Source: Bacteroidota bacterium
Lineage (GTDB): Bacteria; Bacteroidota; Bacteroidia; AKYH767-A; 2013-40CM-41-45
NCBI GenBank assembly: GCA_043747595.1
Contig: JAYTOX010000058.1
Location: 22,562-86,561 of the forward strand
DNA: 64,000 bases
Direction: 5' to 3'
The translations under genes were made by a program, and so were the position numbers. Under the pieces are notes generated by a model. The model saw only the letters and a program-made list of their open reading frames with translations, made no database searches and was not told the origin of the DNA. Below are positions 937 to 47,365 of this stretch, one piece after another (positions within the stretch are counted from its first letter, which is position 1; each line of letters begins with the position of its first letter).

Positions 937-939
937 AAA

Positions 940-1329: not shown

Positions 1330-1332
1330 GAT

Positions 1333-1716
1333 TTAATTGTTCTTTGCTCCTTGTTCAATCCAAAGGTAAATTAATTTCACTTGATCGTCTGCTAAAACAG
1401 GCAAGGGTTTCGGTGGCATTACCTTAGCAAAAAGTCTATTGCTGATAGTTTGATAGATTTTACTACCGTGTGCATTCCCCGGAGAAATACCTCCTTTAAT
1501 TATATCATCGTAGGTAATTAATGCGAATACGGAACGATCTTGTCCTGCAACATTCCCGGTATGACATCCACTTTGCGTGCAATTTCCACCAAAGATTCCT
1601 TGAACATCATTGGCAAAAGATACATCTTTCAACGTCGACAGATCAGTATCGTGCCTGCATGCACTGAGCAAAAAAGCAATTCCGATAATCGAACTATAAA
1701 TGAGATTTTTTAGCAT
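1333..1716 (-). CDS. small Cys-rich lipoprotein, PSCyt1-like with C-x4-C-H motif (paralog of 940..1329)
   Basis: Has a lipoprotein signal (LLSAC). Carries the motif GNCTQSGCH and a C-terminal block KVMPP...LIYLWIEQGAKNN, which is nearly identical to the 940..1329 C-terminus. Confidence 0.5.
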   Translation of the reverse strand: MLKNLIYSSIIGIAFLLSACRHDTDLSTLKDVSFANDVQGIFGGNCTQSGCHTGNVAGQDRSVFALITYDDIIKGGISPGNAHGSKIYQTISNRLFAKVMPPKPLPVLADDQVKLIYLWIEQGAKNN

Positions 1717-2000
1717 GTTTTTTTGGATCTATTCAGCAATTTTATGAAGAGGTCAATAACGATAGATTATTTGTTTAGATCAATGAGCAAAAAATGAATT
1801 CAAAAATTGACACTTTTCAAACCTATATTCTCTATAAAGATTCAATACTACATGTAATTAATAAACGAAGCAAGAAAAATTCTGCTCAAGAGGTAAAATC
1901 TAGATTTGATCAGGTAGATTTACATTCTGAAAAATGTGATGCGTAAATGATTTTAGAATTATTCTCGGATATTAGCATTACTTTTATATTCTAAACAGCT

Positions 2001-2225
2001 ATGGAAATAAAAAAACAACCAAGCAACGATCCTTTACATGGAAAAACATTGGAGTCGATCGTTAACTATTTAGTTGAACAATATGGATGGGATGAGCTAG
2101 GTGAACGAATTCCAATAAATTGTTTCAGGTCGAACCCAACTGTCAAATCGAGTTTAACCTTTTTAAGAAAAACACCCTGGGCACGAAAAAAAGTAGAAGA
2201 CCTATACATTGAAACTATTGAGTAA
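2001..2225 (+). CDS. VF530/DUF2132 family small putative DNA-binding protein
   Basis: The 74-aa product carries [56 protein letters not shown], a match to the conserved DUF2132 core. Confidence 0.6.
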
Positions 2226-2282
2226 AAATAATTTCCGATTTCACCTTATGTACTTATTCAGTTCGATTAAACTTATATAACA

Positions 2283-2320
2283 TAAAAAAAGCGAACTACA
2301 ATTGTAATTCGCTTTTTGCC
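2283..2320. terminator. bidirectional rho-independent terminator between convergent genes
   Basis: AAAAAAAGCGAACTACAATTGTAATTCGCTTTTT forms a GC stem flanked by an A-run and a T-run. Confidence 0.5.
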
Positions 2321-2337
2321 TTTATAATAAATAATTT

Positions 2338-3474
2338 TTATTCTAACACCAACCGATCAATCTTACTTTGTTTCCCATCAATAAATATTTTGTAGAAATA
2401 AATTCCTCTCGACAAAGCCACTACATCTACATTCACCAAATTAGTATTGTCGAATGTATTGTTCAGAATTACATTGCCCATAATATCATAGAAAAGAATA
2501 TTGACCAATCGAACTGTTTTATCAAAACCAAAGTTCACTTGATTTGATGCCGGATTCGGATAAGTTGAAATTTTTGCTTCGTTGATATCGGCTATTGCAT
2601 TTACAGAACTCCCGGCTATATAACTCGACAAATTTAAGTAGTACACAAAATTTCCTGAACCATTATCTTCATCGGTCATAAAAATTTCATTGTTTGACAC
2701 GAACGATAACGATTCTTTTTGCGACCAGGCTCCGCTAATATTCACTTGCGTATGTTGTCCTGAAAAAAAGTTTGTGCCAATAAAATTTTTGAAGATGTGA
2801 AGATGCGAATTCGACATTAGAATCATAGCGCTACCATCGGCAGAGATATCGGCAGAGGTAATTCGATCATTCGTGTAGAAACTATCCACTAATGTTGCAA
2901 CATAACTTCCGGGGCTATCAGGTAAGCGGTACATCTTAGTGTATCCAATTGCTGCACCATCGGCTTTTGAAAATAAATACAAATTTCCATTAAAGTGAAA
3001 AAACGATTCCACATCGTAGTTTAGCCACGACGACGAAATATTTGCTTGATCAGAATAAGTGAAACTAATTGTTTGTGCAACTGCAGAAGTAGTTGATGCA
3101 CTTGGGTATGGAATTCGAAATATTTTCAGATTTGTTCTGATACAATTATTATTTCCAAAGTCGCCTATGAATAAATAGTTGCGTTGAGCATCATGAGTAA
3201 GATCTTCCCAATCATTATTAATGGCACCGTTGATAGTTATGGTTTGCTGCAATGCTCCGGCAGATGAAACACGATATAGGCGATTGTCGCCATAACCATC
3301 GTTATGCGTCCAATAAGAATCGTAACCATTGTAATCAAGGCCCGACGACTCTCTAAGCACGCTCGGCAACGAACCCTTTACTGTAGCAGTAATAGCAGAA
3401 GCAGTTTTAATGCTTAAAGCAAAAAGAAAGAGTAAGAACACCTGTTTAGGAATTCGAGTAAGTTTTATTTTCAT
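2338..3474 (-). CDS. secreted protein with T9SS C-terminal sorting domain (type A CTD)
   Basis: Has a signal peptide (MKIKLTRIPKQVFLLFLFALSIKTASA). The C-terminus ..YPNPASNQVNFGF..GIYFYKIFIDGKQSKIDRLVLE is typical of a Por secretion tail. Confidence 0.6.
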   Translation of the reverse strand: MKIKLTRIPKQVFLLFLFALSIKTASAITATVKGSLPSVLRESSGLDYNGYDSYWTHNDGYGDNRLYRVSSAGALQQTITINGAINNDWEDLTHDAQRNYLFIGDFGNNNCIRTNLKIFRIPYPSASTTSAVAQTISFTYSDQANISSSWLNYDVESFFHFNGNLYLFSKADGAAIGYTKMYRLPDSPGSYVATLVDSFYTNDRITSADISADGSAMILMSNSHLHIFKNFIGTNFFSGQHTQVNISGAWSQKESLSFVSNNEIFMTDEDNGSGNFVYYLNLSSYIAGSSVNAIADINEAKISTYPNPASNQVNFGFDKTVRLVNILFYDIMGNVILNNTFDNTNLVNVDVVALSRGIYFYKIFIDGKQSKIDRLVLE

Positions 3475-4020
3475 TTTCTAAGTATTGTTGGTGCTGCCCT
3501 ATTAACAAAAAGTGCACTCAGCAATATAAATCGCTGCAAAGATAAAATTATTGTAAAACTGTGGCTTTCTTACACTTAACCGGTTTTCAACAAAAGTATG
3601 TTTTGTGGGTTACTTTTGTGGATTCCAAAATTTTTAATCTACACGCTTAAGTTTGTTTTTCAGGAAATAAGTACGTGTTTCTACAGTTTGCCCAAAGTTT
3701 GTACAAAGAATATTTACCTTATTTTAAGTGAGACAATGAGTGCATTAAAATCGAAAACCTCACATAACGCTCTAATTTGCAATACTTAAAGAAGGTTTTT
3801 CTGTGGTAAATAATACCCAAACTGATGAATACCTACAATCAATAATTTTCATTTAGCTTTTAGTAGCTTGGTTTTATAAATCAAAATATACTTCCGACTA
3901 AATCAAAAATGTGAAAATAAATAAGGCCTCGACTACAAATCCTTTGCGAAATCACACTTAATTCACCCCCTCTTTCATTATTTTTTTACCTTCGCAGGCA
4001 CTCAAAATTTCTTCGATTCT

Positions 4021-7000
4021 ATGAATTATCAGCGCATTAATAATCTGATCGGCTGGCTAGTATTTCTAGTCGCTTCTTTCACTTACATTTCAACGATTGA
4101 ACCAACAGGCAGTTTCTGGGATTGTGGTGAGTTCATCGCAACCGCACACAAACTAGAAGTAGGTCACCCACCGGGCGCTCCATTCTTTTTAATGCTTGCC
4201 CGCGTGTTTATCCTCTTTGCCGGCGATAACGTAAAAATGATTCCGATTATGGTAAACACTCTGTCGGCTTTAATGGCGGCGTTTACTATTCTCTTTTTGT
4301 TTTGGACAATTACAGCGCTAGCAAAAAAATTAGTAACAAAAAGCGGAGAGTTAACGACCGAAAAAATTATTGCCATTATGGGTGCCGGTGCTGTAGGTGC
4401 CTTAGCCTACGCATTCAGCGATTCATTTTGGTTCTCTGCTGTTGAAGGCGAGGTATACGCAAGCTCATCGTTCTTTACTGCCATTGTTGTGTGGGCCATG
4501 TTCAAATGGGACAATGCATCGGAAGAAAAACACAATCTTCGTTGGCTTATTCTCATTGCTTACTTAATGGGATTAAGTATAGGAGTTCACTTACTGAACT
4601 TACTTACTATTCCTGCTTTAGCATTCGTCTACTATTTCAAACGTTATACAGTTACAAAAAAAGGTATTATTTATACTGGCATACTTGGTACGGCTATTTT
4701 AGGTTTTGTTCAATATGGAATTATCCAGGAGATGATCACATTAGCAGGATCTATCGATTTGTTTTTTGTAAACACATTGGGAATGCCTTTTGGAAGTGGA
4801 ATTATTCTTTATGGAATTATTATCATCGGATTTTTAATATGGGCATTTCGATACACTAAGAAAAAAGATATGCCACTATGGAATACAGCTGTTTTATGTG
4901 TGTCGTTCATTTTAATTGGATATTCTACTTTCGCTCAAATCGTAATTCGTTCGAATGCTAATCCACCGCTGGATGAAAATAATCCGGAAAACGTTTTCAA
5001 TTTTATTTCTTATTTGAAGCGTGAACAATACGGAGAGCGTCCGTTAGTAATAGGTCAAAACTACAATGCAAAAGTAATTGATCAGAAAGAAGGCGATATG
5101 AATTATGCCAAAATCGATGGTGTAAATAAATATGTTGAAGCAGGAAGAAAAATTGAACCTGTTTATGAAGCAGACAAGACGACTGTTTTCCCTCGTATGT
5201 GGAGTAATCAGGCAAACCATATTACTGAATACAAAAAGTGGGCTGACATAAAAGGCGATCGAAATCCAACCTTCGGCGACAATTTAAAATTCTTCTTTGT
5301 TTACCAATTAGGAGAAATGTATTGGCGATATTTTATGTGGAACTTCGCCGGTCGTCAGAATGATTTACAAGGTCCCGGAGGAATTACAAAAGGAAACTGG
5401 ATAAGTGGAATTAAATTTGTCGACGAAGCTCGCCTAGGACCTCAAGATAAATTACCTGAAGGCATGAAAAACAATCGTGCTCGAAATACGATGTTTTTCC
5501 TTCCGTTGATTTTAGGAATCATAGGAATGATTTATCATTATTCACGCGATAACAAAGATGCATGGGTAGTAATGCTTTTATTCTTCTTTACCGGAATAGC
5601 TATTGTTATTTATTTGAATGGAACACCGCAACAACCACGTGAACGAGATTACGCCTACGCAGGCTCCTTCTATGCTTTCGCTATGTGGATTGGAATTGGT
5701 GTACTTTCTATCTATGAATTGCTACGTAAAAAAATAAATGGTACTACCGCAGCATCAATTGCATCGGTACTCTGTTTAGTTGCTGTTCCATTTGTAATGG
5801 CCAAAGCAGAATGGAACGATCACGATCGCTCTAACCGTTACACATCGCGTGACTTTGCTAGCGATTATTTAAATAGTTGCGAGAAAAATGCAATTATTTT
5901 TACCAATGGCGATAACGACACTTTCCCTCTGTGGTATGCTCAAGAAGTTGAAAATATTAGAACTGATGTACGAGTAATCAATTTGAGTCTATTGAATACA
6001 GATTGGTACATCGATCAGTTAAAACGACAGTATTACAATTCAGATCCAATAAATATTTCATGGGCTTCCGACAAATACAATTTAGGTAAGCGCGATTACA
6101 TACCCTATTACGACCGAGGCTTAAAAGGAGCCGTTGAATTAAAAGAGTTAGTAGACTTTATGGGAAGCGATTCTCCTGATGCAAAAGCAAGAACAAACAG
6201 TGGAGAGCAAATTAATTATTTCCCTACTAAGAATATTAAATTCACAATTGATTCTGCCGAGGTAATTGCTAACGGTGTTGTATCGCCTGAGAATGCAAGT
6301 AAAATTGTGAAGACAATGGAATGGTCGATCAATGGTGGTTATTTAATGAAAAATGATTTGATCATTTTGAACATCATTGCAAATAACCAATGGAAACGTC
6401 CTATTTACTTTGCTACAACAGTAGGTGCCGATAATTATTTAAATCTGGAATCGTATTTCCAATTAGAAGGATTAGCATACAGACTTGTTCCTATCAAAAC
6501 TGCAACTCAAAACGAGATTGTACCAGGTAGCGTAGAAACTACAAAGATGTACAACAACGTAATGAACAAATTCGTTTATGGAAATATGAATATGGAAAAG
6601 GTTTATTTGGATGAGAATAATCTTCGAATGACAACCAATTTCAGAATTAACTTTTCGCGACTGGCAGAAGAGTTAATGAACGAAGGCAAAATGGATTCTG
6701 CTGTTAAAGTATTAGACAAGTGTATGCAGGAGTTGCCTGACAAAACGATTCCATTGAATTATTTCTCTGCTAAACTTGCAGAATTATATTATCGCGCCGG
6801 TGGTGCAATGAAAAATCAGAATCCTGCTGTAACAGGTGTTGATATGGAGTTGAATAAAACAAACGATCTAATAGCAAAAGGAAATGCAATCAACGAGCGT
6901 TTACTTACCATCTACGCCGGGAATATGGACTACTATGAAAGTTTAAAGAAAACTAAATTCTTTAAGTTAGTAGATACTGACATGAATCAAGCATTGTATA

Positions 7001-10356: not shown

Positions 10357-11043
10357 ATGCAGATCCGTCGCATACTATTTCTTAGCTTTTTTTGTCTAAT
10401 ATCAATAGGCACCTTTGCTCAGGTTCATTTACGAATTACAAGTTTGAGTCGTTTTCCTGTTGCTCCAAACGATACTGCTTTTGAGAGTCAAATCTATGAT
10501 AGTATTCTCGTTCAGGTTCAAAATATCGGGAATACAATTCTCACCGATAATATTTCAATTTACCTACAAAGTGCTCCGGCAAATCAAGTTGACACTATTT
10601 ACGACGATTCAAGTGCAACCTATACACTTCAACTTGGAGCATCTACAACTATAAGCAGTAATGGTTACCGCGCAAGGCCAATCCATTATGACGATGGCGA
10701 TAACATAGTAGTAGTATGGCCGGCAGCAAGATTTACCCCTTATACGTGCGATACGCTCACTTTCCACGTTTATTTTGTATCGCTTATTAATCAAATTCCT
10801 GATCGATTGACGCCTACAATTTCTATTGGTCCAAATCCTTCAACCAGCTTCATTTTAGTCGATTTGCCCGTCAAAAATACTTTCAAACAAGTAAGAATCA
10901 TCGATGGTAAAGGTGCTGAAATTAGGCAAATTGAGTCTGGTGAAAATTACATTTCGACTTCGTCGTGGCCAAGTGGAATCTATTTTTTAGAGCTGGTTGA
11001 TTCGAATGGACGAAAACAAGTTAAAAAGATAATCAAAGAATAG
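10357..11043 (+). CDS. secreted protein with T9SS C-terminal sorting domain
   Basis: Has a signal peptide. The C-terminus IGPNPSTSFILVDL...GIYFLELVDSNGRKQVKKIIKE is a T9SS tail. Confidence 0.55.
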   Translation: MQIRRILFLSFFCLISIGTFAQVHLRITSLSRFPVAPNDTAFESQIYDSILVQVQNIGNTILTDNISIYLQSAPANQVDTIYDDSSATYTLQLGASTTISSNGYRARPIHYDDGDNIVVVWPAARFTPYTCDTLTFHVYFVSLINQIPDRLTPTISIGPNPSTSFILVDLPVKNTFKQVRIIDGKGAEIRQIESGENYISTSSWPSGIYFLELVDSNGRKQVKKIIKE

Positions 11044-11094
11044 ACTGTTACCACGAATCTTCTGTTGAGAGAATGTCATTTAACAAACTAAGAT

Positions 11095-11102
11095 TATCTT
11101 TG
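11095..11102 (+). promoter_or_regulatory. candidate Bacteroidota sigma-A -7 element (TAnnTTTG) for ispG
   Basis: TATCTTTG lies 15 nt upstream of the ispG ATG. The -33 region reads TTTA rather than TTTG. Confidence 0.25.
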
Positions 11103-11116: not shown

Positions 11117-13093
11117 ATGAAATTACAAACGCTCACAGCCGATTATTGCAATAGTCTCACAAACTACAACCGCCTTCTTACAAGAGAAGTGAACGTAGGC
11201 GATTTAATTATTGGAGGCAACCATCCTATTCGTGTGCAGTCGATGACTACCACAGATACGATGAATACAATTGCAACAGTAGAGCAAAGCATTAGAATGA
11301 TAGATGCCGGCTGTGAATTAGTTAGAATCACAGCTCCGAGTATTCATGAGGCGAAAAATTTAGAGAACATACGCAAAGAACTTCATAAGCGAGGTTATCA
11401 TGTTCCTTTAATTGCCGATATTCATTTTACTCCAAACGCTGCTGAAGCTGCGGCACGAATTGTAGAAAAGGTGCGAGTGAATCCGGGAAATTATGCCGAC
11501 AAGAAAAAATTTGAAACGCACGATTATTCAGATGCCACTTACGTTGACGAACTCGATCGTATTCGTGATCGTTTTATTCCTTTGGTAAATATTTGCAAAG
11601 AGTATGGTACAGCGATGCGAATCGGAACGAATCATGGTTCGTTGAGCGATAGAATACTGAGCAGATATGGCGACACTCCGCTCGGAATGGTTGAATCGGC
11701 ATTAGAGTTCCTCCGCATTTGCGAAAATGAAAACTACTTCAACATTGTGTTGTCGATGAAGTCGAGTAATCCACAAGTAATGGTTCAGGCATATCGATTG
11801 TTGATTACAAAAATGCAAGAAGAAGGAATGAACTATCCGTTGCATTTGGGAGTAACAGAAGCAGGCGAAGGAGAAGATGGCCGAATTAAATCTGCTGCGG
11901 GAATAGGAACACTTTTAGAAGACGGCATTGGCGATACAATTCGTGTGTCGCTTACCGAAGATCCTGAATTTGAAATACCCGTTGCTAAAGCACTAGTAGA
12001 TCGCTATCAGCGCCGACGAGAGCAATCAACATATATACCTTCTGTAGAAGAAATATCTCCGATAAATACGAAAGCGAATAACGAACTCACCTATTCGCCT
12101 TTCGATTATTCAAGAAGAGCAGCAGTACACATTCAAAATTTCGGCGAACACGAAGTTCCAAGAGTGATAGCAGACATCAGCCAACTTGAAAATATTACCG
12201 AAGCATCGTTATTTGCATGCGGCTATCAGTATGTTTTTGATACAGACAAATGGAATATTTCTGATCAGGCGTGCGATTATATTTTTTGTGGAAATAAAAC
12301 ACCTGAATTTGAAATACCCGGAACTTTGGGTGTAATTGTGAATGCCGACAAATGGATTCATAACAAGACGCGACATTTTCCATTTTTTACGTTTGAAAAT
12401 TATCTGAGTACACAATCAAGAAGTGATAAATTAAATTTTGTAAGTATTGAATTAAAAGATCTTTTCGGAAAAAATGGTCACGCAATAAAAGCTTTCGATG
12501 CTACAACTATTTTAGTAGCCAAAACAGCAAACGAACATGGCATGGCAGAACAACGGAGGCTATTTATTGAATTGAACAGAGCAGGAATTAATCTGCCGAT
12601 TGTTTCGCGAAGAAATTATAGTAGCAGCAATGCAGAAGAAGTTGCGTTACATGCATCAACAGATCTTGGCGCATTATTCTTAGATGGTTTTGGTGATGGA
12701 ATATGGATCAGTGCACCGAATGTAAGTGCGAGAAAACAAATCAATTCAACAGCATTTGGAATACTCCAAGCAACACGAACAAGAATTTCAAAAACAGAAT
12801 ATATTAGTTGTCCAAGTTGCGGACGAACACTTTTCGATTTGCAAGAAACCACAGCAAAAATTCGTTCGCGCACCGATCATTTAAAAGGTATCAAGATTGG
12901 AATTATGGGCTGCATAGTAAATGGTCCGGGAGAAATGGCTGATGCAGATTACGGCTATGTAGGCACAGGCGTAGGTAAAATAACACTGTATAAAGGTCGA
13001 GAAGTTGTTTCCCGAAATATCGATTCCGAAAATGCCGTTGATCAATTAATTGATCTTATTAAATCGCACGGTGATTGGGTGGAAAGGAAGTAA
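11117..13093 (+). CDS. ispG: 4-hydroxy-3-methylbut-2-en-1-yl diphosphate synthase (flavodoxin), long Bacteroidota-type with insertion domain
   Basis: The N-terminus carries NHPIRVQSMTTTDT and the C-terminus carries ISCPSCGRT...IMGCIVNGPGEMADADYGYVG. At 658 aa this fits the long-form GcpE. Confidence 0.9.
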   Translation: MKLQTLTADYCNSLTNYNRLLTREVNVGDLIIGGNHPIRVQSMTTTDTMNTIATVEQSIRMIDAGCELVRITAPSIHEAKNLENIRKELHKRGYHVPLIADIHFTPNAAEAAARIVEKVRVNPGNYADKKKFETHDYSDATYVDELDRIRDRFIPLVNICKEYGTAMRIGTNHGSLSDRILSRYGDTPLGMVESALEFLRICENENYFNIVLSMKSSNPQVMVQAYRLLITKMQEEGMNYPLHLGVTEAGEGEDGRIKSAAGIGTLLEDGIGDTIRVSLTEDPEFEIPVAKALVDRYQRRREQSTYIPSVEEISPINTKANNELTYSPFDYSRRAAVHIQNFGEHEVPRVIADISQLENITEASLFACGYQYVFDTDKWNISDQACDYIFCGNKTPEFEIPGTLGVIVNADKWIHNKTRHFPFFTFENYLSTQSRSDKLNFVSIELKDLFGKNGHAIKAFDATTILVAKTANEHGMAEQRRLFIELNRAGINLPIVSRRNYSSSNAEEVALHASTDLGALFLDGFGDGIWISAPNVSARKQINSTAFGILQATRTRISKTEYISCPSCGRTLFDLQETTAKIRSRTDHLKGIKIGIMGCIVNGPGEMADADYGYVGTGVGKITLYKGREVVSRNIDSENAVDQLIDLIKSHGDWVERK

Positions 13094-13313
13094 GAAGTAA
13101 GAAGTAAGAAGTAAGAAGTAAGAAGTAAGAAGTAAGAAGTAAGAAGTAAGAAGGGGCATTTTTTTCACTCACCAATTACCACTCACTACTCACTTAAAAG
13201 AAGTAAGAAGGGGCATTTTTTTCACTCACCAATTACCACTCACTACTCACTTAAAAGAAGTAAGAAAGTTACGCTTCATTTTTTTCACTCACCAATTACC
13301 ACTCACTACTCAC
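13086..13313 (+). repeat. composite intergenic repeat family A: (GAAGTAA)x~10 array + three tandem 47-bp units GGGCATTTTTTTCACTCACCAATTACCACTCACTACTCAC
   Basis: The array and units are read directly from the sequence. The ispG TAA stop is part of the first heptamer. The element fills the whole convergent ispG/kynA intergenic region. Confidence 0.75.
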
Positions 13314-15943: not shown

Positions 15944-16804
15944 CTATTCTTCGTCGTTTTCAGCCGAAATATCTGTTGTTTCGTCAGCAGCTTCAACATT
16001 GTTTTCGTTTTCTAAGAAAATAGCTTTTCTGTCGGGCATTTCCATTACTTCATCGGCTGATGCAAGTTCCTCTAGGTCAGAACCTTCAATCGAATATTCT
16101 ATAAACTCAGATTCTTGAGCTACAATTTCAGCAACATTCTCACCTTCAATTGGACTTTCTTCAGATGAATCAGCCTCCACAACCATTTCCTCTTGATTAT
16201 CGGTAGTGTTTTCAGGTAATTCTGGAATATAATTGGAAGCATCGAGCATTTCTGAAGTCCCTATTTCGTTCGATTCTAAATGAATATCTTTCAACTGAGG
16301 AAGATCTTTCACGTTTTTAATACCGAAATAATCCATGAACGTGCGACTAGTACTATAAAGAACCGGGCGCCCAGGTGTATCACTTTTCCCCGAAATTTCA
16401 ATTAATTCCTTCTCAAGCAACTTATGAATAGCATAATCGCAACTTACCCCACGAATATGTTCAACTTCCGACTTCGCAATAGGCTGACGGTAAGCGATGA
16501 TAGCCAAGGTTTCCATCTGAGAAACAGAGAGTTTCTTCTTCGACTTATGCTGAATAAGCGAGTTAATAGTTGGATGATACTGTTTTTTAGTCAAAAACTG
16601 ATAGCCATCAGATATTTCCATAAGCTCAAACGAAAAATCGTCAGACACATATTTCGCCTTAATTTCCTCGATAGCGTTTAAAAGCTCTTCATTGGTTAAA
16701 TCCCAATCAAAAGATAGTTTCAGCGAGGCCTTTATTTCATCGAGCGAAATGCTTTGTTCTGAGCAGAATATAAGCGCTTCGACCTGTTGTTTTAATAACT
16801 CCAT
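15944..16804 (-). CDS. scpB: segregation and condensation protein B with acidic C-terminal tail
   Basis: Carries MELLKQQVEALIFCSEQSISLDEI...AIIAYRQPIAKSEVEHIRGV, the ScpB winged-helix repeats. Confidence 0.8.
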   Translation of the reverse strand: MELLKQQVEALIFCSEQSISLDEIKASLKLSFDWDLTNEELLNAIEEIKAKYVSDDFSFELMEISDGYQFLTKKQYHPTINSLIQHKSKKKLSVSQMETLAIIAYRQPIAKSEVEHIRGVSCDYAIHKLLEKELIEISGKSDTPGRPVLYSTSRTFMDYFGIKNVKDLPQLKDIHLESNEIGTSEMLDASNYIPELPENTTDNQEEMVVEADSSEESPIEGENVAEIVAQESEFIEYSIEGSDLEELASADEVMEMPDRKAIFLENENNVEAADETTDISAENDEE

Positions 16805-16973: not shown

Positions 16974-19748
16974 TTACACGACAACATTCACAATTTTCCC
17001 ATGAACAACAATCATTCGTTTTGGTATTTGTCCGTTGAGAAGCTTAATAACATCAGCATTCGATAGCACTTCCTTTTCAACTTCTTCTTTCGTGAATGCT
17101 AAAGGAAGAGGCAAGTTGAATTTTGTTTTTCCGTTTACCGAAATCGGGTATGCAAATTCAGACTCTACAAGATACTCTTCATTACATTCAGGGAAAACAT
17201 CTTTCGTAACACTTTCTTTTTTACCTAGCAGCTCCCAAAGTTCTTCAGCAATATGAGGAGCATAAGGAGAAACAATTATAGCTAATGGCTCCAGAATTTT
17301 TCGCTTGTTGCATTTCAATTCTGTTAATTCATTTACACAAATCATAAAAGTACTAACAGAAGTATTGAAAGAAAATTTTTCAATATCCTCTTTTACTTTT
17401 TTAATAGTCTTGTGAAGAATTTTATACTCCGCTTTACTAGGTTCCGCATCGCTGATGTCAACAAGCATTTCCTTTCCCGGCTCTCCTGCCTTATGATATA
17501 ATTTCCAAAGTTTGCGAATAAAACCTGATGTTCCTGTAATTCCATTCGTGTTCCAAGGCTTTGATAATTCGAGAGGTCCTAAAAACATCTCATACAGACG
17601 AAGACAATCAGCGCCATATTTCTCGATCATCGAATCAGGACTTACCACATTCCATTTCGACTTCGACATTTTCTCTACTTCATTACCGCAAATGTATTTT
17701 CCATCTTCCAAAATGAATTCTGCATTTTTATATTCCTCTCGCCAATTTTTAAATGCATTAATATCGAGTACATCGCCTTCCACCATATTTACATCAACAT
17801 GCCATGCCGTTACATCAAAATCTTTATTCAATCCGGCTGAAACAAATTTGTTAGAGTCTTTAATACGATAAACAAAATTAGATCGCCCTTGAATCATTCC
17901 TTGGTTAATCAATTTCTTCGCAGGTTCTTCAATAGAAATAAATCCGCGATCGAATAAAAACTTTGTCCAAAAACGAACATACAATAAATGACCGGTCGCA
18001 TGTTCTGCCCCGCCCATATACAAATCTACATCCTTCCAATAATTCAACGCTTCCTTTGATGCAATTTCTTTTTCATTAGTTGCATCCATATAACGCAAAT
18101 AATACCAAGAAGAGCCGGCCCATCCCGGCATCGTCGTCGTTTCAATAGGATAACCTTTGTAATTAAAATCTTTCGCTCTAGCTAAAGGTGGCTCGCCGTC
18201 TTCTGTAGGTAAATATTTATCTACTTCAGGCAAAACAATTGGAAGATCTTTTTCATCGACAGTAAACGGAATTCCGTCTTTGTAATAAATTGGAATTGGT
18301 TCGCCCCAATAACGTTGACGACCGAAGATTGCATCACGCAAACGATAATTTATTTTTCCTTTACCTAGATTTCTGTTTTCTATTTTCTCAATCATTTTCT
18401 TGATTGCCGATTTTACATCAAGCCCATTTAGAAAATCAGAGTTAATAATGAGCCCTTCTTTTGCATCGTACGATTCATTTTCTATATTTCCACCAGAAAC
18501 AACTTCGACAATAGGAAGATTAAAATGTTTTGCAAACGCATAATCTCTGGAATCGTGTGCCGGCACAGCCATTACAGCGCCTGTTCCATAGCTGGCAAGT
18601 ACATAATCGCCAATCCAAATTGGAATTTTATTTCCACTAAAAGGATGTATTGCATAAGCACCGGTAAAAACGCCCGTAATATTTTTCACCTCCGCCATTC
18701 GTTCACGCTCACTTCTATTTTTTGCTTCAAGGATATACGAATTAACTTCATTTCGATATTCAGGAGTGGTAATCATATCGGCAAATTCATGTTCAGGCGC
18801 AATCGTCATATAGGTAGCGCCGAAAATTGTATCAGGACGAGTAGTAAAAATTAAAAGTTCCAGGTGAGAGTGTGCAATTTTAAAATTTAGTTCAGCACCT
18901 TCGCTACGACCAATCCAATTACGTTGCTGCTCCTTTAAAGAATCGCTCCATTCTATGTGATCAAGTCCTTCAAGTAATCGTTGAGCGTAAGCAGTAATTC
19001 TCATCGACCACTGTTTCATCAACTTTCGTTCTACAGGATAACCACCGCGTTCGCTCACACCATCTTTTACCTCTTCATTTGCTAAAACAGTACCAAGCAC
19101 AGGGCACCAATTCACAAAGCCTTCGGAGATATAAGCGAGACGATAATTTATTAAAATTTCTTGTTGTTCTTTTTCAGAAAAAGCGAGCCATTGATCATTA
19201 GAAAAAATCCGTTCTTCAGAAGTAACAGCAGAAATAGTTTGATTGCCCGATTTTTCAAATTCGTTTATCAGTGTTTTTATTTCTTCAGCTTTATTACTTT
19301 TCTTATTGTACCAAGAATTAAAAAACTGAATAAAGATCCACTGAGTCCATTTGTAATAGGCCGGATCCGATGTTCTGACCTCTCTCGACCAATCGAAAGA
19401 AAATCCGATCTGATCTAATTGTTGACGATAACGTGCAATATTTTGTTCGGTAGTAATTGCAGGATGTTGTCCGGTTTGAATGGCATATTGTTCGGCAGGA
19501 AGACCAAACGAATCGTATCCCATCGGATGCAGCACATTGAAACCTGTTAAACGTTTGTATCGAGCATAAATATCAGAAGCAATATAGCCAAGCGGATGAC
19601 CAACATGCAAACCGGCACCGGAAGGATAGGGGAACATATCGAGCACATAATATTTCTCTTTAGAAGAATTTGATTCAGCACGATACGACTGGTGTTTCCG
19701 CCAGTAGTCTTGCCATTTTTTTTCTATCGTAGTAAAGTTGTATTCCAT
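16974..19748 (-). CDS. leuS: leucine--tRNA ligase
   Basis: Has the HIGH-region HVGHPLGY, the KMSKSK motif, and the CP1 editing domain. The product is 924 aa. Confidence 0.95.
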
Positions 19749-19750
19749 AT

Positions 19751-19856
19751 TTTAGTGAGTGGTGAGTGGTGAATGGTGAGTAGTGAGTAAAAAAATCCAT
19801 CCATTTATGGCCTTCTTACTTCATCCTTCTTCCTTTTTACTTCATCCTTTCTTTAA
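19751..19856 (-). repeat. composite repeat family A copy (inverted orientation) abutting the leuS start codon
   Basis: The reverse complement reads (GAAGGATGAAGTAA..)-GGCCATAAATGGATGGATTTTTTT-ACTCACTACTCACCATTCACCACTCACCACTCAC. It lies 3 nt upstream of the leuS ATG. Confidence 0.65.
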
Positions 19857-20021
19857 TCAGTAGCGAGTAAACAATAGGTTTCCCAGTTATAAACTCCGCT
19901 GCTTGACTCCATTTAAACGCCATTTCTTCATTAACATGCGAATGTAGAAAAATAAGCCGAAAGGAGAGATTTTTTGACCCTAGTACCGATAAACTTTTTA
20001 TACTTTCGTTTTCTGAAAGTT

Positions 20022-20900
20022 ATGCAAATAGAACAGCCAAAAGAAGGAAGTAAGCGTTTAAGATCATCCTATGCCTCATCGATTATTAGCGTGTCGTTGG
20101 TGTTATTTATGTTGGGATTACTTGGCTTATTAGTAGTTGATGCGAAAAAAATAGGCGACTATTTAAAAGAGCATGTTCAGTTGAATGTGTACTTACAGGA
20201 AAATATCGGCCAACAAGATCTGGATCTATTTATGGTCGCATTGAATCAATCAGATTTTGTACGTTCGGCTCGTTATGTGAGTAAAGAAGAAGCGCTTGAC
20301 AGCTTAAAGAAGGAATTGGGAGAAAGCGCAACAGGAATGCTTGAGAGTAATCCGTTGCCGGCCACGATAGATATTAACGTAAAAGCGAGTTATGCGAATC
20401 CTGATAGTTTAAAACGGATCAAAGAACAAATGAGTACTATCAGATTGGTGAGAGATGTAAGTTACCAGCAAACGGAGATCAGTAAAATGAATCAAAATTT
20501 TAGAACGATAGCAATGATCATTCTAGTTTTTTGTGCTTTACTACTTTTTGTTGCAGTTGTATTAATAAACAATACAATTCGTTTGTCGATGTATAGCAAA
20601 CGTTTTTTGATAAAAAGTATGCAACTAGTAGGAGCTACAAAATCATTTATTCGTTGGCCATTTTTAAAAACCGGTTTTGTACATGGAATTTATTCGGGAA
20701 TAATAAGCAGTATATTGTTAGCCGTTGTAGTATATTTTATTCAGCGACAGTTTCCGGAATTCCAGCAGTTATCAGATCTTAAAATGATCGGACTTCTTTT
20801 CGCAGGAATGATTTTGATAGGTATTTTAGTGACATCACTCAGCACACTTTTTTCAGTAAGCAAATATTTGCGCTTGCATGTGGATGAACTTTATAATTAA
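20022..20900 (+). CDS. ftsX: cell division ABC transporter permease FtsX-like
   Basis: Has an N-terminal TM helix, a periplasmic domain and three C-terminal TM helices (FtsX topology). The start is set at the internal Met (MQIEQ). Confidence 0.65.
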   Translation: MQIEQPKEGSKRLRSSYASSIISVSLVLFMLGLLGLLVVDAKKIGDYLKEHVQLNVYLQENIGQQDLDLFMVALNQSDFVRSARYVSKEEALDSLKKELGESATGMLESNPLPATIDINVKASYANPDSLKRIKEQMSTIRLVRDVSYQQTEISKMNQNFRTIAMIILVFCALLLFVAVVLINNTIRLSMYSKRFLIKSMQLVGATKSFIRWPFLKTGFVHGIYSGIISSILLAVVVYFIQRQFPEFQQLSDLKMIGLLFAGMILIGILVTSLSTLFSVSKYLRLHVDELYN

Positions 20901-20944
20901 GCAAAGGCCCTTTTCTTGCTTTCTAAAATTTGTTAGCTTTATAT

Positions 20945-21402
20945 GAGGTAAAAAGTAAGAAGAGTAAGAAGTATGAAGTAAGAAGTATGAAGTAAGAAGT
21001 ATGAAGTAAGAAGGATGAAGTAAGAAGTAAGAAGTAAGAAGTAAGAAGTAAGAAGTAAGAAGTAAGAAGTATGAAGTATGAAGTAAGAAGTATGAAGTAA
21101 GAAGTAAGAAGGATGAAGTAAGAAGGATGAAGTAAGAAGTAAGAAGTAAGAAATAAGAAGTATGAAGTAAGAAGTTCGAAGTATTAAGTATGAAGTATGT
21201 CAAGGGGGACTCACCAATTACCACTCACCACTCACTAAAGAGAATGCCGTTCGGAATTAATAGTTGTTCTTCAAAAATAGTTCGTACATCTTACTAAACA
21301 TTCCGCTTTGCGGCAAAGGTCAAGTAGTAAGTAGTAAGTATGTCATAAATGGACGTGATTTTTTACTTACAACTTACCACTCACTACTTACCATTCTCAC
21401 TG
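20945..21402. repeat. compound repeat region: ~250-bp degenerate (GAAGTAA/GAAGTAT/GAAGGAT)n array + family A tail + family B unit + second family A copy
   Basis: The heptamer periodicity is visible by eye. The tail is GACTCACCAATTACCACTCACCACTCAC. A further copy ..TTTTTTACTTACAACTTACCACTCACTACTTACCATTCTCAC overlaps the CDS 3' end at 21374. Confidence 0.75.
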
Positions 21403-23968
21403 TTCGTACTTTATCTTCAAACAAAATTTTACCTATATAAATTCCCGGTGGAAGTTTTTCGTTGCTGAGCTGAATATCGTTTTTTCCGGATGTGAAAGTT
21501 ATTTTTTGCGACGATTCAACTTGGCCGGATGAATTGATTAATTGAAAAATTGCATTTCCACTTTTTGCAGAATTAAATTGAATTCGGAATTTTCCATCTG
21601 TAGGATTAGGATAAACAATAATCTGTTCCGATGAATTGCCAATAATATTATCAGCACTGAGCACTTCCAGCATATCGCCAACCATCATTCCACTTCCAAA
21701 ACTCGTGACCCAAATTAAATTTGGTTGATAAGGATCAAAGAAAACTCGCTCCGGCTGTCTAAATTGATAAGTACTAACATTCGTCCATGATGGTAATGCT
21801 AAATTCATATTAGATGATGTCCATAAACCATTGGTTTCTGTAGTGAGATATGCCTGATATAAATTCGAAGGATTAAAAGTGATTGAAGTAACTCTGTCGA
21901 ATTGAGAACCTGTCAATTTTGTCCAACTCAACCCACGATTGGAAGTTTTATACAATCCGCCAAGACCATTCGGTGCACCACCCCATCCGCTGAAGACACA
22001 TGCATACCAAGTATTTTGTGTAGCATCGTTCGGATCTATCACAACATCTTTTGTCCAATAGCGCATTCCGGCATCACTTACATCTGTCCATGAATTCGTG
22101 TTCGGATCGTAAATAAAAACACCGGAGCTCGCAGTGAATGTGCCGCTTGAATTTCTTCGTCCGGAGAATGAACAAACTACTTTACCATCGTTTAATACTA
22201 TGATACTTGCAGCGTGTCCTTCTGTGCGCGGAGGATTAGGAAGTTTTGTCCATGTAGATGTTTGTAGATTATTCAAATCATCGGTTCTGTAAATTCCTCC
22301 AAGCTGACTGCCTTGTGTACCGCCGAAATGAATTACAGATGCATACATTCTGTTTTGATTTGTTGGATCTATCGCTAACCAAAAAACAGGATGATTAAAT
22401 ACATGCAAATTGCTCCATGTACTTCCGCTGTCAGTAGAGAAAACGATTTTTCCATTTCCATCGCTGGCATCTAATTGTGCATCTGCAAGTCGTGTGCTTT
22501 GATACATATCATGAATGTTAGAACAAGCACCAAATAAATTTCCATTGGTGCTTTCTGCAATTCTATACAATGAGTTTACAGAAAATCCCGAGTATTGATA
22601 TCCCCAACTAGAACCACCATCATTGCTTGTTAGTCCACCAATATCGCTAAAGCAGCCAATCATTTTATTTGCAGAAGTCCAATGTACTTGCCAGCAAGTT
22701 GTATTTTCTAATCCTACACTGTGATACGCACGATTTTTTGGTGTTGGTATTCCGGCACTATGTTCATCTGATTGGGAAACGTAAGCTTGTCGCCATGATG
22801 TTCCTCCGTTCGAACTTACTTGGACATTAGAGAAATTACTAAAAATTACTTTTGATGAATTAAGTGGCGCAGCAGTTATTCCAAAACATGTTTCGCTCCA
22901 ACTAAAATTTTTGTCACCTTGATAGCCTTCCCAACCGGTTACGATATTAGCATTACTAATTGTTTGGTATATCGAAGACCATGTTGAACCTGCATCCGAT
23001 GATTTTAATACTAGTGGCGAACCGTTAGCATTATCATGTCCACCAAGGTAAATTGTATTAATATCATTCCACGCCATTGTACAATACATTACAAAATCGT
23101 TCGAGAAATTTATTCCCGTCGATTTTGGAACCCATGTACCATTGGCATTATCCATTGTATAAACCCCTTTAGCAAAATTGTAGTAGTCCCATGGTTTAAC
23201 TCCATTGTATGTACCTGATGAATTTGCAGTAATAGCAGTAAGTCGAAGTGTATTCCCTGATCTTGCTCCGGCGAATGACCAAATAACTTGTCCGGAAGTG
23301 ATACCGGAAGTATTCATCACAGAAAAATTAATTCCACCATCGCTGCTATGAATTAATCCGTCATTAGTGCCAATATAAATGTTTTGTCCGTCGAAGAAAA
23401 CGCCACCAAGAATTAATCCGGCGCCCATAGAGTTAGCAACTTTAACCAAATTAAAAGATGTTCCACCATCATTCGAAATCAAGATGTGGCCATACGCGCC
23501 AATGAGTAATTGATTTGGATTTGCATAATTTGCTTTCACAGAGTAAGCAGAACCGTAAGTTGACAGATTATAAGAATTCAATGTAGACCATGTTGCTCCA
23601 GCATCAAGCGATTTAACAGGGAATTCATTGTTGCCATCATTGTAAATAGTATAGGCAGTATGTCCATCGTTAGTAAATTCAAAAGTCGAAACATTTCCAA
23701 TTTGTAATTTTGAAAAGTCAGACTGATTATAACTTATACCAAAGTTAGTAGAATGAAAAAGTTGGCTCATATCGCAAGCAACATAATATTCATTATCGTT
23801 TGCCGGATTGATAGTAGGAAAAAATAAAGCACCACCGCCACCCATACCGGAATGATAAAAAGCGACAGGTTGAGCTTCAGTAAAAAGTGCGATTACACTT
23901 AGGCAAAGTGTCAGGAATGATTTGAGTTTCATTTTTCTTTTTTTTAGAATAGAAGAATAAATATCCAA
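21374..23968 (-). CDS. BNR/Asp-box repeat beta-propeller protein (GH74/sialidase-like) with T9SS C-terminal domain
   Basis: Has a signal peptide and at least seven S-x-D-x-G-x-T-W-type Asp-box repeats (SLDAGATWS, SSDAGSTWS, SSNGGTSWR, STDSGSTWS and others). The C-terminus YPNPTDGKFRIQF..GIYIGKI is a T9SS tail. The last codons (MVSSEW) are encoded by the family A repeat. Confidence 0.6.
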   Translation of the reverse strand: MDIYSSILKKRKMKLKSFLTLCLSVIALFTEAQPVAFYHSGMGGGGALFFPTINPANDNEYYVACDMSQLFHSTNFGISYNQSDFSKLQIGNVSTFEFTNDGHTAYTIYNDGNNEFPVKSLDAGATWSTLNSYNLSTYGSAYSVKANYANPNQLLIGAYGHILISNDGGTSFNLVKVANSMGAGLILGGVFFDGQNIYIGTNDGLIHSSDGGINFSVMNTSGITSGQVIWSFAGARSGNTLRLTAITANSSGTYNGVKPWDYYNFAKGVYTMDNANGTWVPKSTGINFSNDFVMYCTMAWNDINTIYLGGHDNANGSPLVLKSSDAGSTWSSIYQTISNANIVTGWEGYQGDKNFSWSETCFGITAAPLNSSKVIFSNFSNVQVSSNGGTSWRQAYVSQSDEHSAGIPTPKNRAYHSVGLENTTCWQVHWTSANKMIGCFSDIGGLTSNDGGSSWGYQYSGFSVNSLYRIAESTNGNLFGACSNIHDMYQSTRLADAQLDASDGNGKIVFSTDSGSTWSNLHVFNHPVFWLAIDPTNQNRMYASVIHFGGTQGSQLGGIYRTDDLNNLQTSTWTKLPNPPRTEGHAASIIVLNDGKVVCSFSGRRNSSGTFTASSGVFIYDPNTNSWTDVSDAGMRYWTKDVVIDPNDATQNTWYACVFSGWGGAPNGLGGLYKTSNRGLSWTKLTGSQFDRVTSITFNPSNLYQAYLTTETNGLWTSSNMNLALPSWTNVSTYQFRQPERVFFDPYQPNLIWVTSFGSGMMVGDMLEVLSADNIIGNSSEQIIVYPNPTDGKFRIQFNSAKSGNAIFQLINSSGQVESSQKITFTSGKNDIQLSNEKLPPGIYIGKILFEDKVRTVRMVSSEW

Positions 23969-24077
23969 TTAAGTAAAGGTATATATTCTATTGATAAATT
24001 GTATTCAAATAAGGCAATTAAAAATTAGCAGAGAAATGTAGCGTAGTTTCTTTATTATTCCGCTGAATTAAATTTAT

Positions 24078-24085
24078 TATCTTTG
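24078..24085 (+). promoter_or_regulatory. candidate -7 element TATCTTTG upstream of cytochrome c peroxidase gene
   Basis: TAnnTTTG lies 19 nt upstream of the ATG in a divergent intergenic region. Confidence 0.25.
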
Positions 24086-29580: not shown

Positions 29581-29721
29581 TAAGAAGTAAGAAGTAAGAA
29601 GTAAGAAGTAAGAAGTAAGAAGTAAGAAGTAAGAAGTAAGAAGTTGACAATGCCTAAAACAGATTGACCTATTTTAGGCATTGTCCTTTTTTACTCACCA
29701 CTCACTACTTACCACTCACCC
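29581..29721 (+). repeat. composite repeat family A copy: (TAAGAAG)x9 + terminator hairpin + TACTCACCACTCACTACTTACCACTCACC tail
   Basis: Begins at the queA stop codon. It fills the convergent queA/gdh intergenic region. Confidence 0.75.
29648..29692 (+). terminator. rho-independent terminator embedded in family A repeat
   Basis: CAATGCCTAAAACAGATTGACCTATTTTAGGCATTG is a 12-bp stem, followed by TCCTTTTTT. Confidence 0.6.
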
Positions 29722-38453: not shown

Positions 38454-38990
38454 AATTGGAAGTAAGTAAGGTCATGGGTCATGGGTCATTGGTCATGGGT
38501 CATGGGTCATGGGTCATTGGTCATGGGTCAAAGGTCATTATACTCTGCTTCTATTTACTTTTTACCAATTAGTTTTGGAATGATGAAGGATAAAGTAAGA
38601 AAGGTTAAAGGTTACTTTTTTTACTCACCTCGCAAAGCGGAATCTTTAGCGAAGCGGGATTCCGCTTACGCTTAGAATTAATTTAAAGCACTCAACATCG
38701 AACTTTTATTAAATCATTACTTACTTTGAAAGCATTTAATTTGATTGCTAACAAAAGCGGAATTCCGTTCGGCGTTTAAAGGCTTCCATTTTATTTCTTA
38801 CCTCCGCCTCTCTAAAAATTCCGCTTTGCGGTGGAATTCCGTTCGGCATATAATAGCTTCCATTTTATTTCTAACCTCCGCCTCTCTAAAAATTCCGCTT
38901 TGCGGTGGAGAAGCAAGAAGGGTCATTTTTTTACTCACCAATCACTACTCACTAAAAAATTTACTACTCACTAAAAAATTTAATTCTTAA
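38454..38990. repeat. compound repeat region: (GGTCATG)x~10 array, GCGGAATC/GATTCCGC hairpin, two tandem ~75-bp family B units (GGAATTCCGTTCGGC...AATTCCGCTTTGCGGTGGA), family A tail
   Basis: All components are read directly. The family A tail is AAGAAGGGTCATTTTTTTACTCACCAATCACTACTCAC. The region fills the 3'-3' intergenic space between murF-alr and the PAP2 gene. Confidence 0.7.
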
Positions 38991-45346: not shown

Positions 45347-45449
45347 GTAAATGGTATTTAGAGCAAAGAAACAAGAATCATTGAGAAATCAAAAGTGTTT
45401 TTATTGAAGAGATTGGTACAAGAAGGGTGAAGTAAGAAAAAATAACCCA

Positions 45450-46004
45450 TCACTCCATCTTTATCAATCTCTTTCTAAAAATATTTTTATCAGAAATTGC
45501 TTCGATAAAATAATTGCCCGAAGGAAGAAAACCAACATCAATCGTTTCATTTCCATTTACTTTTTTGGAATAAACTAGCGCTCCTAATTCATTGTACAAT
45601 TTTAATAAAATGTTTATTGGATAAACCGAATGAACCGACAATTCTTTCGTAATTGGATTCGGGTAAAATTGAATAGACTTATCATCAGATTCCTGTTCTT
45701 GAATTCCCGTTGAAAGTGAATCGCAAATACTTCCTATGACCGGGCCAAGGTTGTAGTTGACCATGTTTGGTAAACTTTGAATTGTCCGACCATTTCCTAA
45801 ATCAAAATAAGATTGTTGGTAATTGCAATTTACTCCCAAATTATCAGGAGTTAAAATTACATCCATGTGGTGAGTGTAATAAGTATTTGAAAAGGGCCCT
45901 TGGAAATTATCTCCCTTAGTTAAATAAATTCGATCATCAGGGCCTAATAGTATTTCTCCGCTAACGACGGATTTGCCACTCCCACTGCTTCGACGTTCCG
46001 ATAG
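45450..46004 (-). pseudogene. remnant of a T9SS cargo gene (CTD only) truncated at a REP/RAYT insertion
   Basis: The ORF ends with a T9SS CTD (IQFYPNPITKELSV...GNYFIEAISDKNIFRKRLIKME). It lacks a signal peptide and a functional domain. The upstream open frame runs into REP copy 45985-46023 and stops there. Confidence 0.4.
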
Positions 46005-47205: not shown

Positions 47206-47365
47206 GACGCAAGATTTATCAGCTTTGAGATTGCTTCGCACGAATAGATGTACGTGTACAAATACGATGAGCTTTGAAGGGTGGATGAATATCCACAGTT
47301 AAATACGACGGACGAATGTTCATCATAGCAAGCTCACCAATCACAACTTACCTCTCACTAAAAAT
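47040..47365. repeat. REP copy (inverted) + tandemly duplicated ~115-bp unit containing AGTGGATGAAyATCCAC hairpin + degenerate family A tail
   Basis: The block GATTGCTTCG.ACGAA..GATGTA....AATACGATGAGCTTTGAAG.GTGGATGAA.ATCCACAG occurs twice. CTCACCAATCACAACTTACCTCTCAC lies at 47331-47360. Confidence 0.55.

Follow-up and report, generated by a model that had tools for sequence, protein, structure and literature searches.

We analyzed a 64,000-nucleotide stretch of a Bacteroidota metagenome-assembled genome (MAG; assembly GCA_043747595.1, contig JAYTOX010000058.1), called the window throughout, and found that it carries a real, dispersed, multi-copy family of intergenic composite repeats built from 7-nt units. 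The original prediction had described these elements, at eight or more sites, as terminator-carrying miniature repeats of no assignable family. All of the listed sites exist, and the window, i.e. 64 kb of a single MAG, holds at least nine copies of the composite, among them one that had not been listed (copy F, 38581-38629). The family does have a home: it falls in the known class of intergenic heptanucleotide tandem repeats, which takes in short tandemly repeated repetitive sequences (STRRs), long simple sequence repeats (LSSRs), the Xanthomonas GGGAATC repeats and the Bacteroidetes heptamers. As in STRRs and LSSRs, its 7-nt units stand head-to-tail, it is present at many intergenic loci and it varies between related genomes. 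It is not an STRR in the strict sense, as its host belongs to the Bacteroidia, HIP1 is not enriched in the window and the units are GAAGTAA and ACTCACC. Our preferred explanation, to which we give a probability of about 0.55, is that the copies are heptanucleotide microsatellite modules driven by slippage, spread by recombination and tolerated at the 3′ ends of genes, with some copies keeping terminator activity. The copies, with arrays as called by Tandem Repeats Finder (TRF), are listed below.

13087..13313, + strand: copy A, occupying the whole convergent gap between ispG and TDO, stop codon to stop codon; left array (GAAGTAA)×9.6 at 13087-13153 (100% matches by TRF); three 57-bp units in tandem, each with GAAGTAAGAAG, GGGCA (GCTTCA in the third), T7 and the 28-nt tail CACTCACCAATTACCACTCACTACTCAC; T-runs at 13159-13165, 13216-13222 and 13279-13285; tails at 13166-13193, 13223-13250 and 13286-13313.
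19749..19849, - strand: copy B, inverted, in the divergent leuS/ftsX gap; reverse-complement tail 19754-19788, A7 19789-19795, centre CCATCCATTTATGG, degenerate left arm 19811-19849.
20948..21235, + strand: copy C; GTAAGAA/GTATGAA/GGATGAA array at 20948-21197 (TRF ×35.4), junction GTATGTCAAGGGGG without a T-run, tail GACTCACCAATTACCACTCACCACTCAC at 21208-21235.
21322..21392, + strand: copy D; (AAGTAGT)×2.7, centre GTCATAAATGGACGTGA, T6 at 21359-21364, tail ACTTACAACTTACCACTCACTACTTACC.
29581..29720, + strand: copy E, in the queA/gdh convergent gap; (TAAGAAG)×9.1 at 29581-29644 (100% matches by TRF), 14-bp hairpin with arms 29646-29659 and 29672-29685, T6 at 29687-29692, tail ACTCACCACTCACTACTTACCACTCACC at 29693-29720.
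38470..38538, + strand: GGTCATG/GGTCATT array of ten units, starting right after AAGTAAGTAA.
38581..38629, + strand: copy F; degenerate purine-rich arm, T7 at 38616-38622, one ACTCACC unit at 38623-38629.
38909..38982, + strand: copy G; GAGAAGCAAGAAG, GGTCA, T7 at 38926-38932, ACTCACCAATCACTACTCAC, two TAAAAAATTT(ACTACTCAC) units; ends at the stop codon of the PAP2 gene.
45417..45460, + strand: weak remnant, AAGAAGGGTGAAGTAAGAAAAAATAACCCATCACTCCATC.
47333..47362, + strand: tail-only copy, CTCACCAATCACAACTTACCTCTCACTAAAAA, similar to the tail of copy G, in a co-directional gap.

The last two sites had been put forward as degenerate remnants; the one at 47333-47362 is a clear tail-only copy, and the one at 45417-45460 is weak. 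To define the module, we aligned 11 copies anchored on the T-run, which yielded a fixed order of units: (GAAGTAA)n, AAGG, one or more GGTCA/GGGTCA-type units, T7, and (ACTCACY/ACTTACC)n. The GGTCAT-type unit is optional. The T-run is T6 or T7, with exactly seven T in most copies; it had been expected in every copy and is missing from copy C. The pattern T{5,}C?ACT[CT]AC occurs eight times in the window, each time within a composite and with purine-rich heptamers on its left, and clusters of at least three ACT[CT]AC units were found nine times in the window and not once in simulations. Period 7 (with its multiple 14) is the sole tandem period of the window, accounting for 15 segments and 852 nt, while periods across the range 3-13 otherwise gave 0-3 segments. 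TRF called its period-7 arrays at ×9.6, ×35.4, ×9.1 and ×9.9, and a period scan of the relatives described below likewise returned 7 as the sole tandem period. The 28-mer tail matched four times where 0 matches were expected, exactly at 13166, 13223 and 13286 and with two mismatches at 21208. As the original prediction held, the tail has a 7-nt periodicity; it is itself a heptamer array, made of CACTCAC, CAATTAC, CACTCAC and TACTCAC. Its three exact occurrences are the product of a local 57-bp tandem triplication (TRF 13141-13313, ×2.9) and not of independent insertions.

The middle piece of the module is a heptamer as well. The array at 38470-38538 is a tenfold amplification of the GGTCAT unit that lies between left arm and T-run in copies A and G and in a copy from another MAG (L013, see below). 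The module is thus composed of successive heptamer types, any of which can amplify. We also considered whether a 7-nt phase runs through whole modules and rejected this: copy E measures 112 nt (16×7), and copy A is out of phase, with a tandem unit of 57 nt. The two arms are near inverse complements of each other, GTAAGAA facing GTGAGTA (the reverse complement of the tail) with mismatches at 2 of 7 positions, one of which becomes a G.U pair in the reverse-strand RNA; the arms of copy D are near-perfect inverse complements. When either convergent gene is read in its sense direction, the purine-rich array comes first and offers stop codons in all three frames within 21 nt (TAA in GAAGTAA, TGA in GGTGAGT), and the far array is G-free and pyrimidine-rich. 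It had been claimed that the stop codons of ispG and queA form the first heptamer of their arrays; the ispG stop (13091-13093) does sit inside the first GAAGTAA unit of copy A, whereas the queA stop (29578-29580) lies outside its array, directly next to the first TAAGAAG unit. The tail of copy B stops 5 nt short of the leuS ATG (19746-19748).

The window is AT-rich, with a GC content of about 36%. Its genes include those for a long-form IspG, QueA, LeuRS, FtsX and proteins with a tail for the type IX secretion system (T9SS), and its proteins match best those of uncultured "Bacteroidia/Bacteroidota bacterium" MAGs. A cyanobacterial origin was rejected, as HIP1 shows no excess and the homologues of ispG and queA belong to Bacteroidia. 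All arrays are intergenic, and five gaps of the 64-kb window carry them. In agreement with the earlier claim that most copies sit between convergent genes, a T-run core was found in four of the five convergent gaps compared with 1 of 28 other gaps of at least 30 bp (Fisher p=6e-4); the sole convergent gap without a core is 30 bp long.

We then asked how far the copies resemble terminators at the RNA level. Copy E folds on the forward strand at -27.9 kcal/mol (z -6.6) into a 14-bp stem followed by U6, as predicted for a textbook terminator, and on the reverse strand at -38.8 kcal/mol (z -7.9). Copy D gave z -3.2 forward and z -5.6 reverse. The forward RNA of copy A is unstructured (z about 0), and the reverse RNA of its first unit, A1, folds at -20.7 kcal/mol (z -3.2). 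For copies A, C and G, forward-strand folding was no better than that of shuffled sequences (z about 0 to +2.4). A hairpin had been said to precede the T-run often; it is convincing 5′ of the T-run in copy E only, weak in B and D and absent from A, C and G, so that a stem-loop with a U-run is present in E, partial in D and B, and lacking in A, C and G, of which C also has no T-run. Predicted terminator structure is therefore a property of individual copies and not of the family, which does not bear out the description of the element as terminator-carrying: E is terminator-grade, D partly so. By these folding models one or two copies look like true terminators, E being the sole textbook intrinsic one. 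A scan for sigma-70 promoters and terminators showed no enrichment, and missed E owing to its 12-nt loop. Rfam 15 covariance models gave 0 matches at gathering score in the whole window, and a tRNA scan found nothing. Compact ordinary terminators serve co-directional genes of the window (14494-14463 and 15042-15013).

The turnover of the copies was followed in syntenic relatives: L001 (GCA_043749635.1; ispG 94% identical in amino acids), L002-L004 (80%), L016-L023 (queA 88-93%), two Logan assemblies of the same species as the window (L024 and L025), and L026-L028 (GCA_043778905.1 and two ENA assemblies). The prediction of high variability among close relatives was borne out by a 7-nt indel, an indel of ~390 bp, swapped heptamers, and different arrays beside a TDO gene that is 99% identical. 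Copy B has an orthologue in L001 with about 95% identity and a difference of exactly one 7-nt unit. A single short D-type module, orthologous to copy D, follows ftsX in L001; in the window, the left arm of D contains an additional ~390 bp, made up of array C, a tail and another repeat, and copy C is absent from L001. The ispG/TDO spacer is wholly different in each lineage: GAAGTAA...ACTCACC in the window, AAAAGTC...GAATTAC/GATTCAC in L001, and AATTGAG with its complement CTCAATT in L002. At this site the arrays grade out of gene ends. The ispG end ...AGGAAGTAA passes into (GAAGTAA)n in the window and through GGAAGTA, GGAAGTC and AAAAGTC in L001, whose right array resembles the TDO end CCGATTCAACC.

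In L026, TDO matches its L001 counterpart at 99.1% identity from the stop codon on, and the downstream arrays and neighboring genes differ: TDO of L026 is followed by T8 and an ACTCACC-type tail and faces PAP2, whereas TDO of L001 faces ispG. Synteny between L026 and the window breaks at the T7-ACTCACC cores of copies F and A3, to within ~5 nt (L026 5809-5813 versus window 38631 and 13278). Three independent assemblies (GCA_043778905.1 and the two ENA assemblies) agree on the PAP2-TDO arrangement, and the break would reflect an inversion or translocation at the repeats within the species, or else a repeat-induced assembly chimera that these assemblies have in common. Copy G is identical in the two independent Logan assemblies.

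Heptamer arrays were not found in the more distant relatives L016-L018 and L021-L023. Their queA/gdh gap holds a compact bidirectional terminator, AAAAAACGATTGAC-CAAA-GTCAATCGTTTTTTTTT, in L016, L021 and L022, and another canonical terminator in L023; the array-free set also includes AAAAAAGGCTGTCC-GTT-GGACAGCCTTTT. In L023, ispG and TDO overlap. The gap 3′ of MurF-Alr spans 9 bp in L016 versus 526 bp in the window. Between these extremes, the queA/gdh gap holds a hairpin whose arms are 7-nt periodic in L019, and arrays, a central hairpin and a T-run in L020; both look like intermediate states. The loop of copy E, AAAACAGATTGACC, may be a remnant of an ancestral terminator arm (AAAAAACGATTGACC), a suggestive but short match.

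Several further observations concern the surroundings of these copies. Beyond copy B, the leuS/ftsX spacer is strongly conserved (window 19850-19973, L001 18770-18890, L002 18690-18785), with AACATGCGAATGTAGAAAAATAAG common to the window, the 80% relative, L016 and L023; this part has no Rfam match and is probably the ftsX promoter or leader. Comparison of window 1100-22400 with L001 gave a mean four-fold-site identity of 0.65 with several tracts at 99-100% identity (e.g. 16300-16800, 19900-20100 and 11000-11100) and 97.7% identity over the gene at 10357-11043, a mosaic that suggests recent recombination between the two lineages. Gene content is variable between ftsX and the DUF3098 gene (window 21374-26032), a spot flanked by copies C and D: it encodes a T9SS-tailed protein of 864 aa and a MauG-like di-haem peroxidase of 642 aa in the window and a methyltransferase in L002, and is empty in L016. 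A second, REP-like (repetitive extragenic palindromic) repeat family consists of GC-rich mini-hairpins (ATTCCGCTTTGCGG, GCCGTTCGGAAT) at 21236-21315, 38630-38680 and 38757-38905, and includes a 74-bp unit in two tandem copies at 38759-38909. Its motif matched five times versus 1.1 expected, always in the two convergent gaps that also carry the heptamer family, and homologous copies are present in L026. Lastly, the arrays give rise to annotation artefacts: a 123-aa open reading frame (ORF; 20853-21224, - strand) passes through array C, as TTACTTC repeats contain no stops, and the leuS gene call of L001 is extended by 15 codons through the tail of copy B.

The original prediction had named occurrence outside the window as a test. 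The AAGG-GTCA-T7-ACTCAC junction, common to copies A and G, is also found in L001 and at two loci from other MAGs, L008 and L013. These two were obtained by scanning 185,579 species genomes, a set that does not contain the source genome, with the pattern GAAGTAAGAAG...TTTTT(N)ACTCAC. Of nine matches, L008 (a Bacteroidota MAG) and L013 (labelled Flavobacterium sp.) are genuine composites at convergent junctions, a third, L005, is possible, and the rest are chance matches without arrays. The tandem units of L013 measure 61 bp and are homologous to the 57-bp ones of copy A. In L008 (6660-6736, - strand), T7 is followed by a hexamer array, (ACTCAC)×12, the only non-7 period in any copy, and then by the heptamers ACTTACC and ACCGACC; the same gap holds further arrays, (GGTGAGT/GGTGATT)×12 and an AATTGTA type. 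Within 8 kb (300-6220), L005, which has a GC content of 0.44 and is labelled Candidatus Gracilibacteria, carries six heptamer arrays and a reverse-oriented AAGAAGTAAG...T7-ACTCAC junction that ends at a start codon; its label is doubtful given its long table 11 ORFs, and it could be a mis-binned contig or a sign of wider distribution. Viral contigs gave 0 matches for both patterns searched, and in JGI metagenomes the junction gave two matches only, both by chance.

How could such modules arise? Under our preferred explanation, the basic module would be a short string of the 7-nt units GAAGTAA, GGGTCAT, TTTTTTT and ACTCACC, each of which would grow and shrink in 7-nt steps by slipped-strand replication. 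Perfect arrays would be young and degenerate arrays old; arrays with 100% unit identity imply recent expansion. Array recombination would have moved or replaced copies between intergenic sites, as suggested by the shared non-array junctions and the breakpoints at cores, and modules would accumulate in convergent 3′ spacers, where extra DNA is tolerated, overlying or having replaced the compact bidirectional terminators of array-free sister lineages. Because the arms are near-complementary and would pair through G.U on the reverse strand, copies E, D and A (the last in reverse) may still offer hairpin and U-rich structures that could terminate transcription. Several points weigh against this explanation. 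Slippage, recombination and any effect on transcription are all inferred. The bias toward convergent gaps fits termination or insulation as well as it fits tolerance, and the T-run measures 7 nt in most copies, which may point to constraint. Copy B is ~95% identical to its L001 orthologue compared with 65% at four-fold sites. We draw no conclusion on purifying selection from this value, because window and L001 form a recombination mosaic and copy B adjoins a 99%-identical tract. The junction and the order of units recur in MAGs labelled Flavobacterium sp. and Bacteroidota bacterium, so slippage alone is insufficient and horizontal spread, conserved common descent or selection is needed. Lastly, the long arrays were assembled from short-read MAG data and their lengths may be wrong: Logan assemblies L024 (end 6376) and L025 (end 4725) both break off where the 74-bp tandem repeat adjoining copy G begins, at its first base, which implies that such repeats break short-read assemblies and that published array lengths (e.g. 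35 units in copy C) are possibly unreliable.

The contender closest to this explanation, which we consider possible but clearly less probable, is that the whole module is a dedicated bidirectional terminator or insulator, selected to stop the transcription of both convergent genes. It might act intrinsically, through a G.U-containing arm-arm hairpin and a U-rich array, or through Rho, with the G-free C/U-rich array as a rut site, and a transcript would run through a purine-rich, stop-rich array, then U7 or A7, then a G-free pyrimidine-rich array. The strong enrichment in convergent gaps, a layout that is symmetric in both reading directions and the conserved length of the T-run all fit such a role, as do the reverse RNAs of A, D and E, which fold better than shuffles (z -3.2, -5.6 and -7.9), and copy E, which is canonical and located where relatives have a compact bidirectional terminator. 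However, the forward strands of copies A, C and G are unstructured, C has no T-run, and copy B lies in a divergent promoter region where it abuts the leuS start codon. Relatives in which ispG and TDO overlap, or in which the gap is 9 bp, need no terminator there, co-directional genes of the window manage with ordinary compact terminators, and the wholesale swap to unrelated heptamers in L001 counts against a sequence-specific function; the Rho component, moreover, is purely conjectural. We regard as unlikely a non-autonomous mobile element resembling a miniature inverted-repeat transposable element (MITE) or a REP doublet (REPIN), with its transposase elsewhere and the arrays as secondary decoration. 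Such an element would explain why scattered copies have a non-repetitive junction in common, both inside the genome and between MAGs, why copies were gained relative to relatives and why their location is one typical of REP elements and MITEs. Against this, and against the earlier reading as a miniature element, we saw no defined ends, terminal inverted repeats or target-site duplications: the copies show arm-arm quasi-complementarity only, run from stop to stop, grade into genes, and have their L001 indel boundaries inside arrays. No transposase gene or gene for a REP-associated tyrosine transposase (RAYT) was found in the 64-kb window, viral contigs gave no matches, and the junction is essentially absent from JGI metagenomes.

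A further alternative, less probable again, is that the arrays would act in RNA, each heptamer binding one OB-fold protein (Csp- or S1-like), or the G-free ACTCACC array serving as an unstructured leader that aids translation without a Shine-Dalgarno sequence, as might apply to copy B and leuS. In its favor, a distance of 5 nt separates the tail of B from the leuS ATG, an array stands at the same place in L001 and L002, and MacGregor 2015 (PMC4679880) proposed such a role for TAACTGA and noted that CspB binds one heptamer per protein. Most copies, however, are downstream of genes, and heptamer sequences differ freely among relatives. The notion that the reverse strand encodes small repetitive peptides, AAAAAAATG followed by the stop-free (CTTCTTA)n, seemed to draw on the CAT that precedes the T-run in A1-A3, G and L013 and on the 123-aa ORF through copy C (20853-21224, - strand). 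We rejected this as highly improbable: frames, lengths and sequences are unrelated between copies (G would give MTLLASPPQSGIFREAE...), every 7-nt length change shifts the frame, B has no ATG at the run, and the L001 orthologue of B ends differently. We find it doubtful, though no more so than the mobile element, that the arrays record the work of an active enzymatic process, specific to the lineage and centred on the T7-ACTCACC core, instead of passive slippage. A recombinase or nuclease making 7-nt staggered cuts, with fill-in repair duplicating the overlap, or a replication or repair factor imposing 7-nt template slippage, could be responsible, and the same process would drive within-species rearrangements with breakpoints at cores. 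Array-rich lineages (window, L001 and L002) and array-free ones (L016 and L021-L023) are about 90% identical in queA; if an enzyme were at work, comparing their gene contents could name the factor and explain the excess of heptanucleotide repeats in bacteria.

The family is of most value as a comparative system for the heptamer bias and as a marker of structural variation between strains. Sister genomes with a shared gene order and ~90% protein identity differ in repeat state, which makes for an unusually clean comparison across three states: array-free with compact terminators, intermediate hairpins with 7-nt periodic arms, and every convergent spacer array-filled from stop to stop. Two questions become testable: how arrays arise from terminator arms and the ends of genes, and what factor is behind the 7-nt bias. 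On the practical side, the modules disrupt short-read assembly, give rise to spurious ORFs (e.g. 20853-21224, - strand) and mark hot spots of strain-level rearrangement, and they would be sensitive strain-typing markers.

Knowledge of bacterial heptanucleotide tandem repeats goes back to 1990, yet their origin and function are unexplained. The cyanobacterial STRRs are heptanucleotide short tandemly repeated repetitive sequences of Calothrix, Anabaena and Nostoc. Like them, the present family has tandem 7-nt units at many intergenic loci, with several unit types per genome and a function that is unexplained; unlike them, it belongs to another phylum, uses other units and has a fixed order around T7, paired near-complementary arms and a preference for convergent 3′ ends. 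GGTCATT, which makes up 2 of the 10 units at 38470, is a circular permutation of TTGGTCA, which we take to be cyanobacterial STRR2. Heptanucleotide LSSRs were described by Mrazek 2007, as cited in PMC4692102. Among the long simple repeats of bacteria, those with a heptanucleotide unit show the strongest over-representation, for which slippage of the polymerase has been put forward as an explanation (PMC4692102). Heptameric simple sequence repeats (SSRs) with the units GGGAATC in Xanthomonas and GGGGAYT in Nostoc were described by Rehm et al. 2015 (PMC4692102). In Xanthomonas, 70-75 cases of two nearby inverted heptamer arrays occupy the same intergenic sites in related strains, arrays vary extensively between strains in length and sequence, and 16% of the repeats lie between convergent genes (PMC4692102). 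Our arrays share with these SSRs that they are intergenic, paired and variable among relatives. They differ in being AT-rich with no G-tracts and a T7 centre, where the Xanthomonas and Nostoc repeats are G-rich and form G-quadruplexes, and their convergent bias is much stronger.

Other small intergenic elements offer partial parallels. REP elements, REPINs and MITEs are likewise short, non-coding, multi-copy, hairpin-capable and often placed between convergent genes, whereas the body of the present family is a microsatellite, with no palindromic unit, terminal inverted repeats or target duplications. In particular, it lacks the 20-40 nt palindrome of REPs and REPINs; it is the separate ATTCCGCTTTGCGG hairpins that resemble REPs, and no RAYT was seen with them. 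Bidirectional intrinsic terminators are matched in position and by the A-rich stretch, 14-bp stem and U6 of copy E, but most copies have no GC-rich stem beside the T-run, and the arrays add a superfluous 60-250 nt. As for literature on this composite in Bacteroidota, MacGregor 2015 (PMC4679880) was the only report found. It described TAACTGA direct repeats in Beggiatoaceae, Cyanobacteria and five Bacteroidetes, in the last of which the arrays are mixed with other heptamers and absent from close relatives of the same gene order; the repeats have stop codons in the forward direction and are open in reverse, and a role in rearrangement was suggested (PMC4679880). The present family resembles these repeats as a set of intergenic Bacteroidetes heptamers with forward stops that is absent in syntenic relatives. 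It differs from them in its unit and in its place, as TAACTGA mostly lies just 5′ of start codons, which holds here for copy B only, and the composite T7 module has no counterpart there. Taken together, what sets this family apart from the known heptanucleotide repeats is its fixed modular order around T7, the stop-to-stop filling of convergent spacers, the recurrence of its junction across MAGs and the breakpoints at its cores, along with its apparent derivation from, or overlay on, bidirectional terminators.

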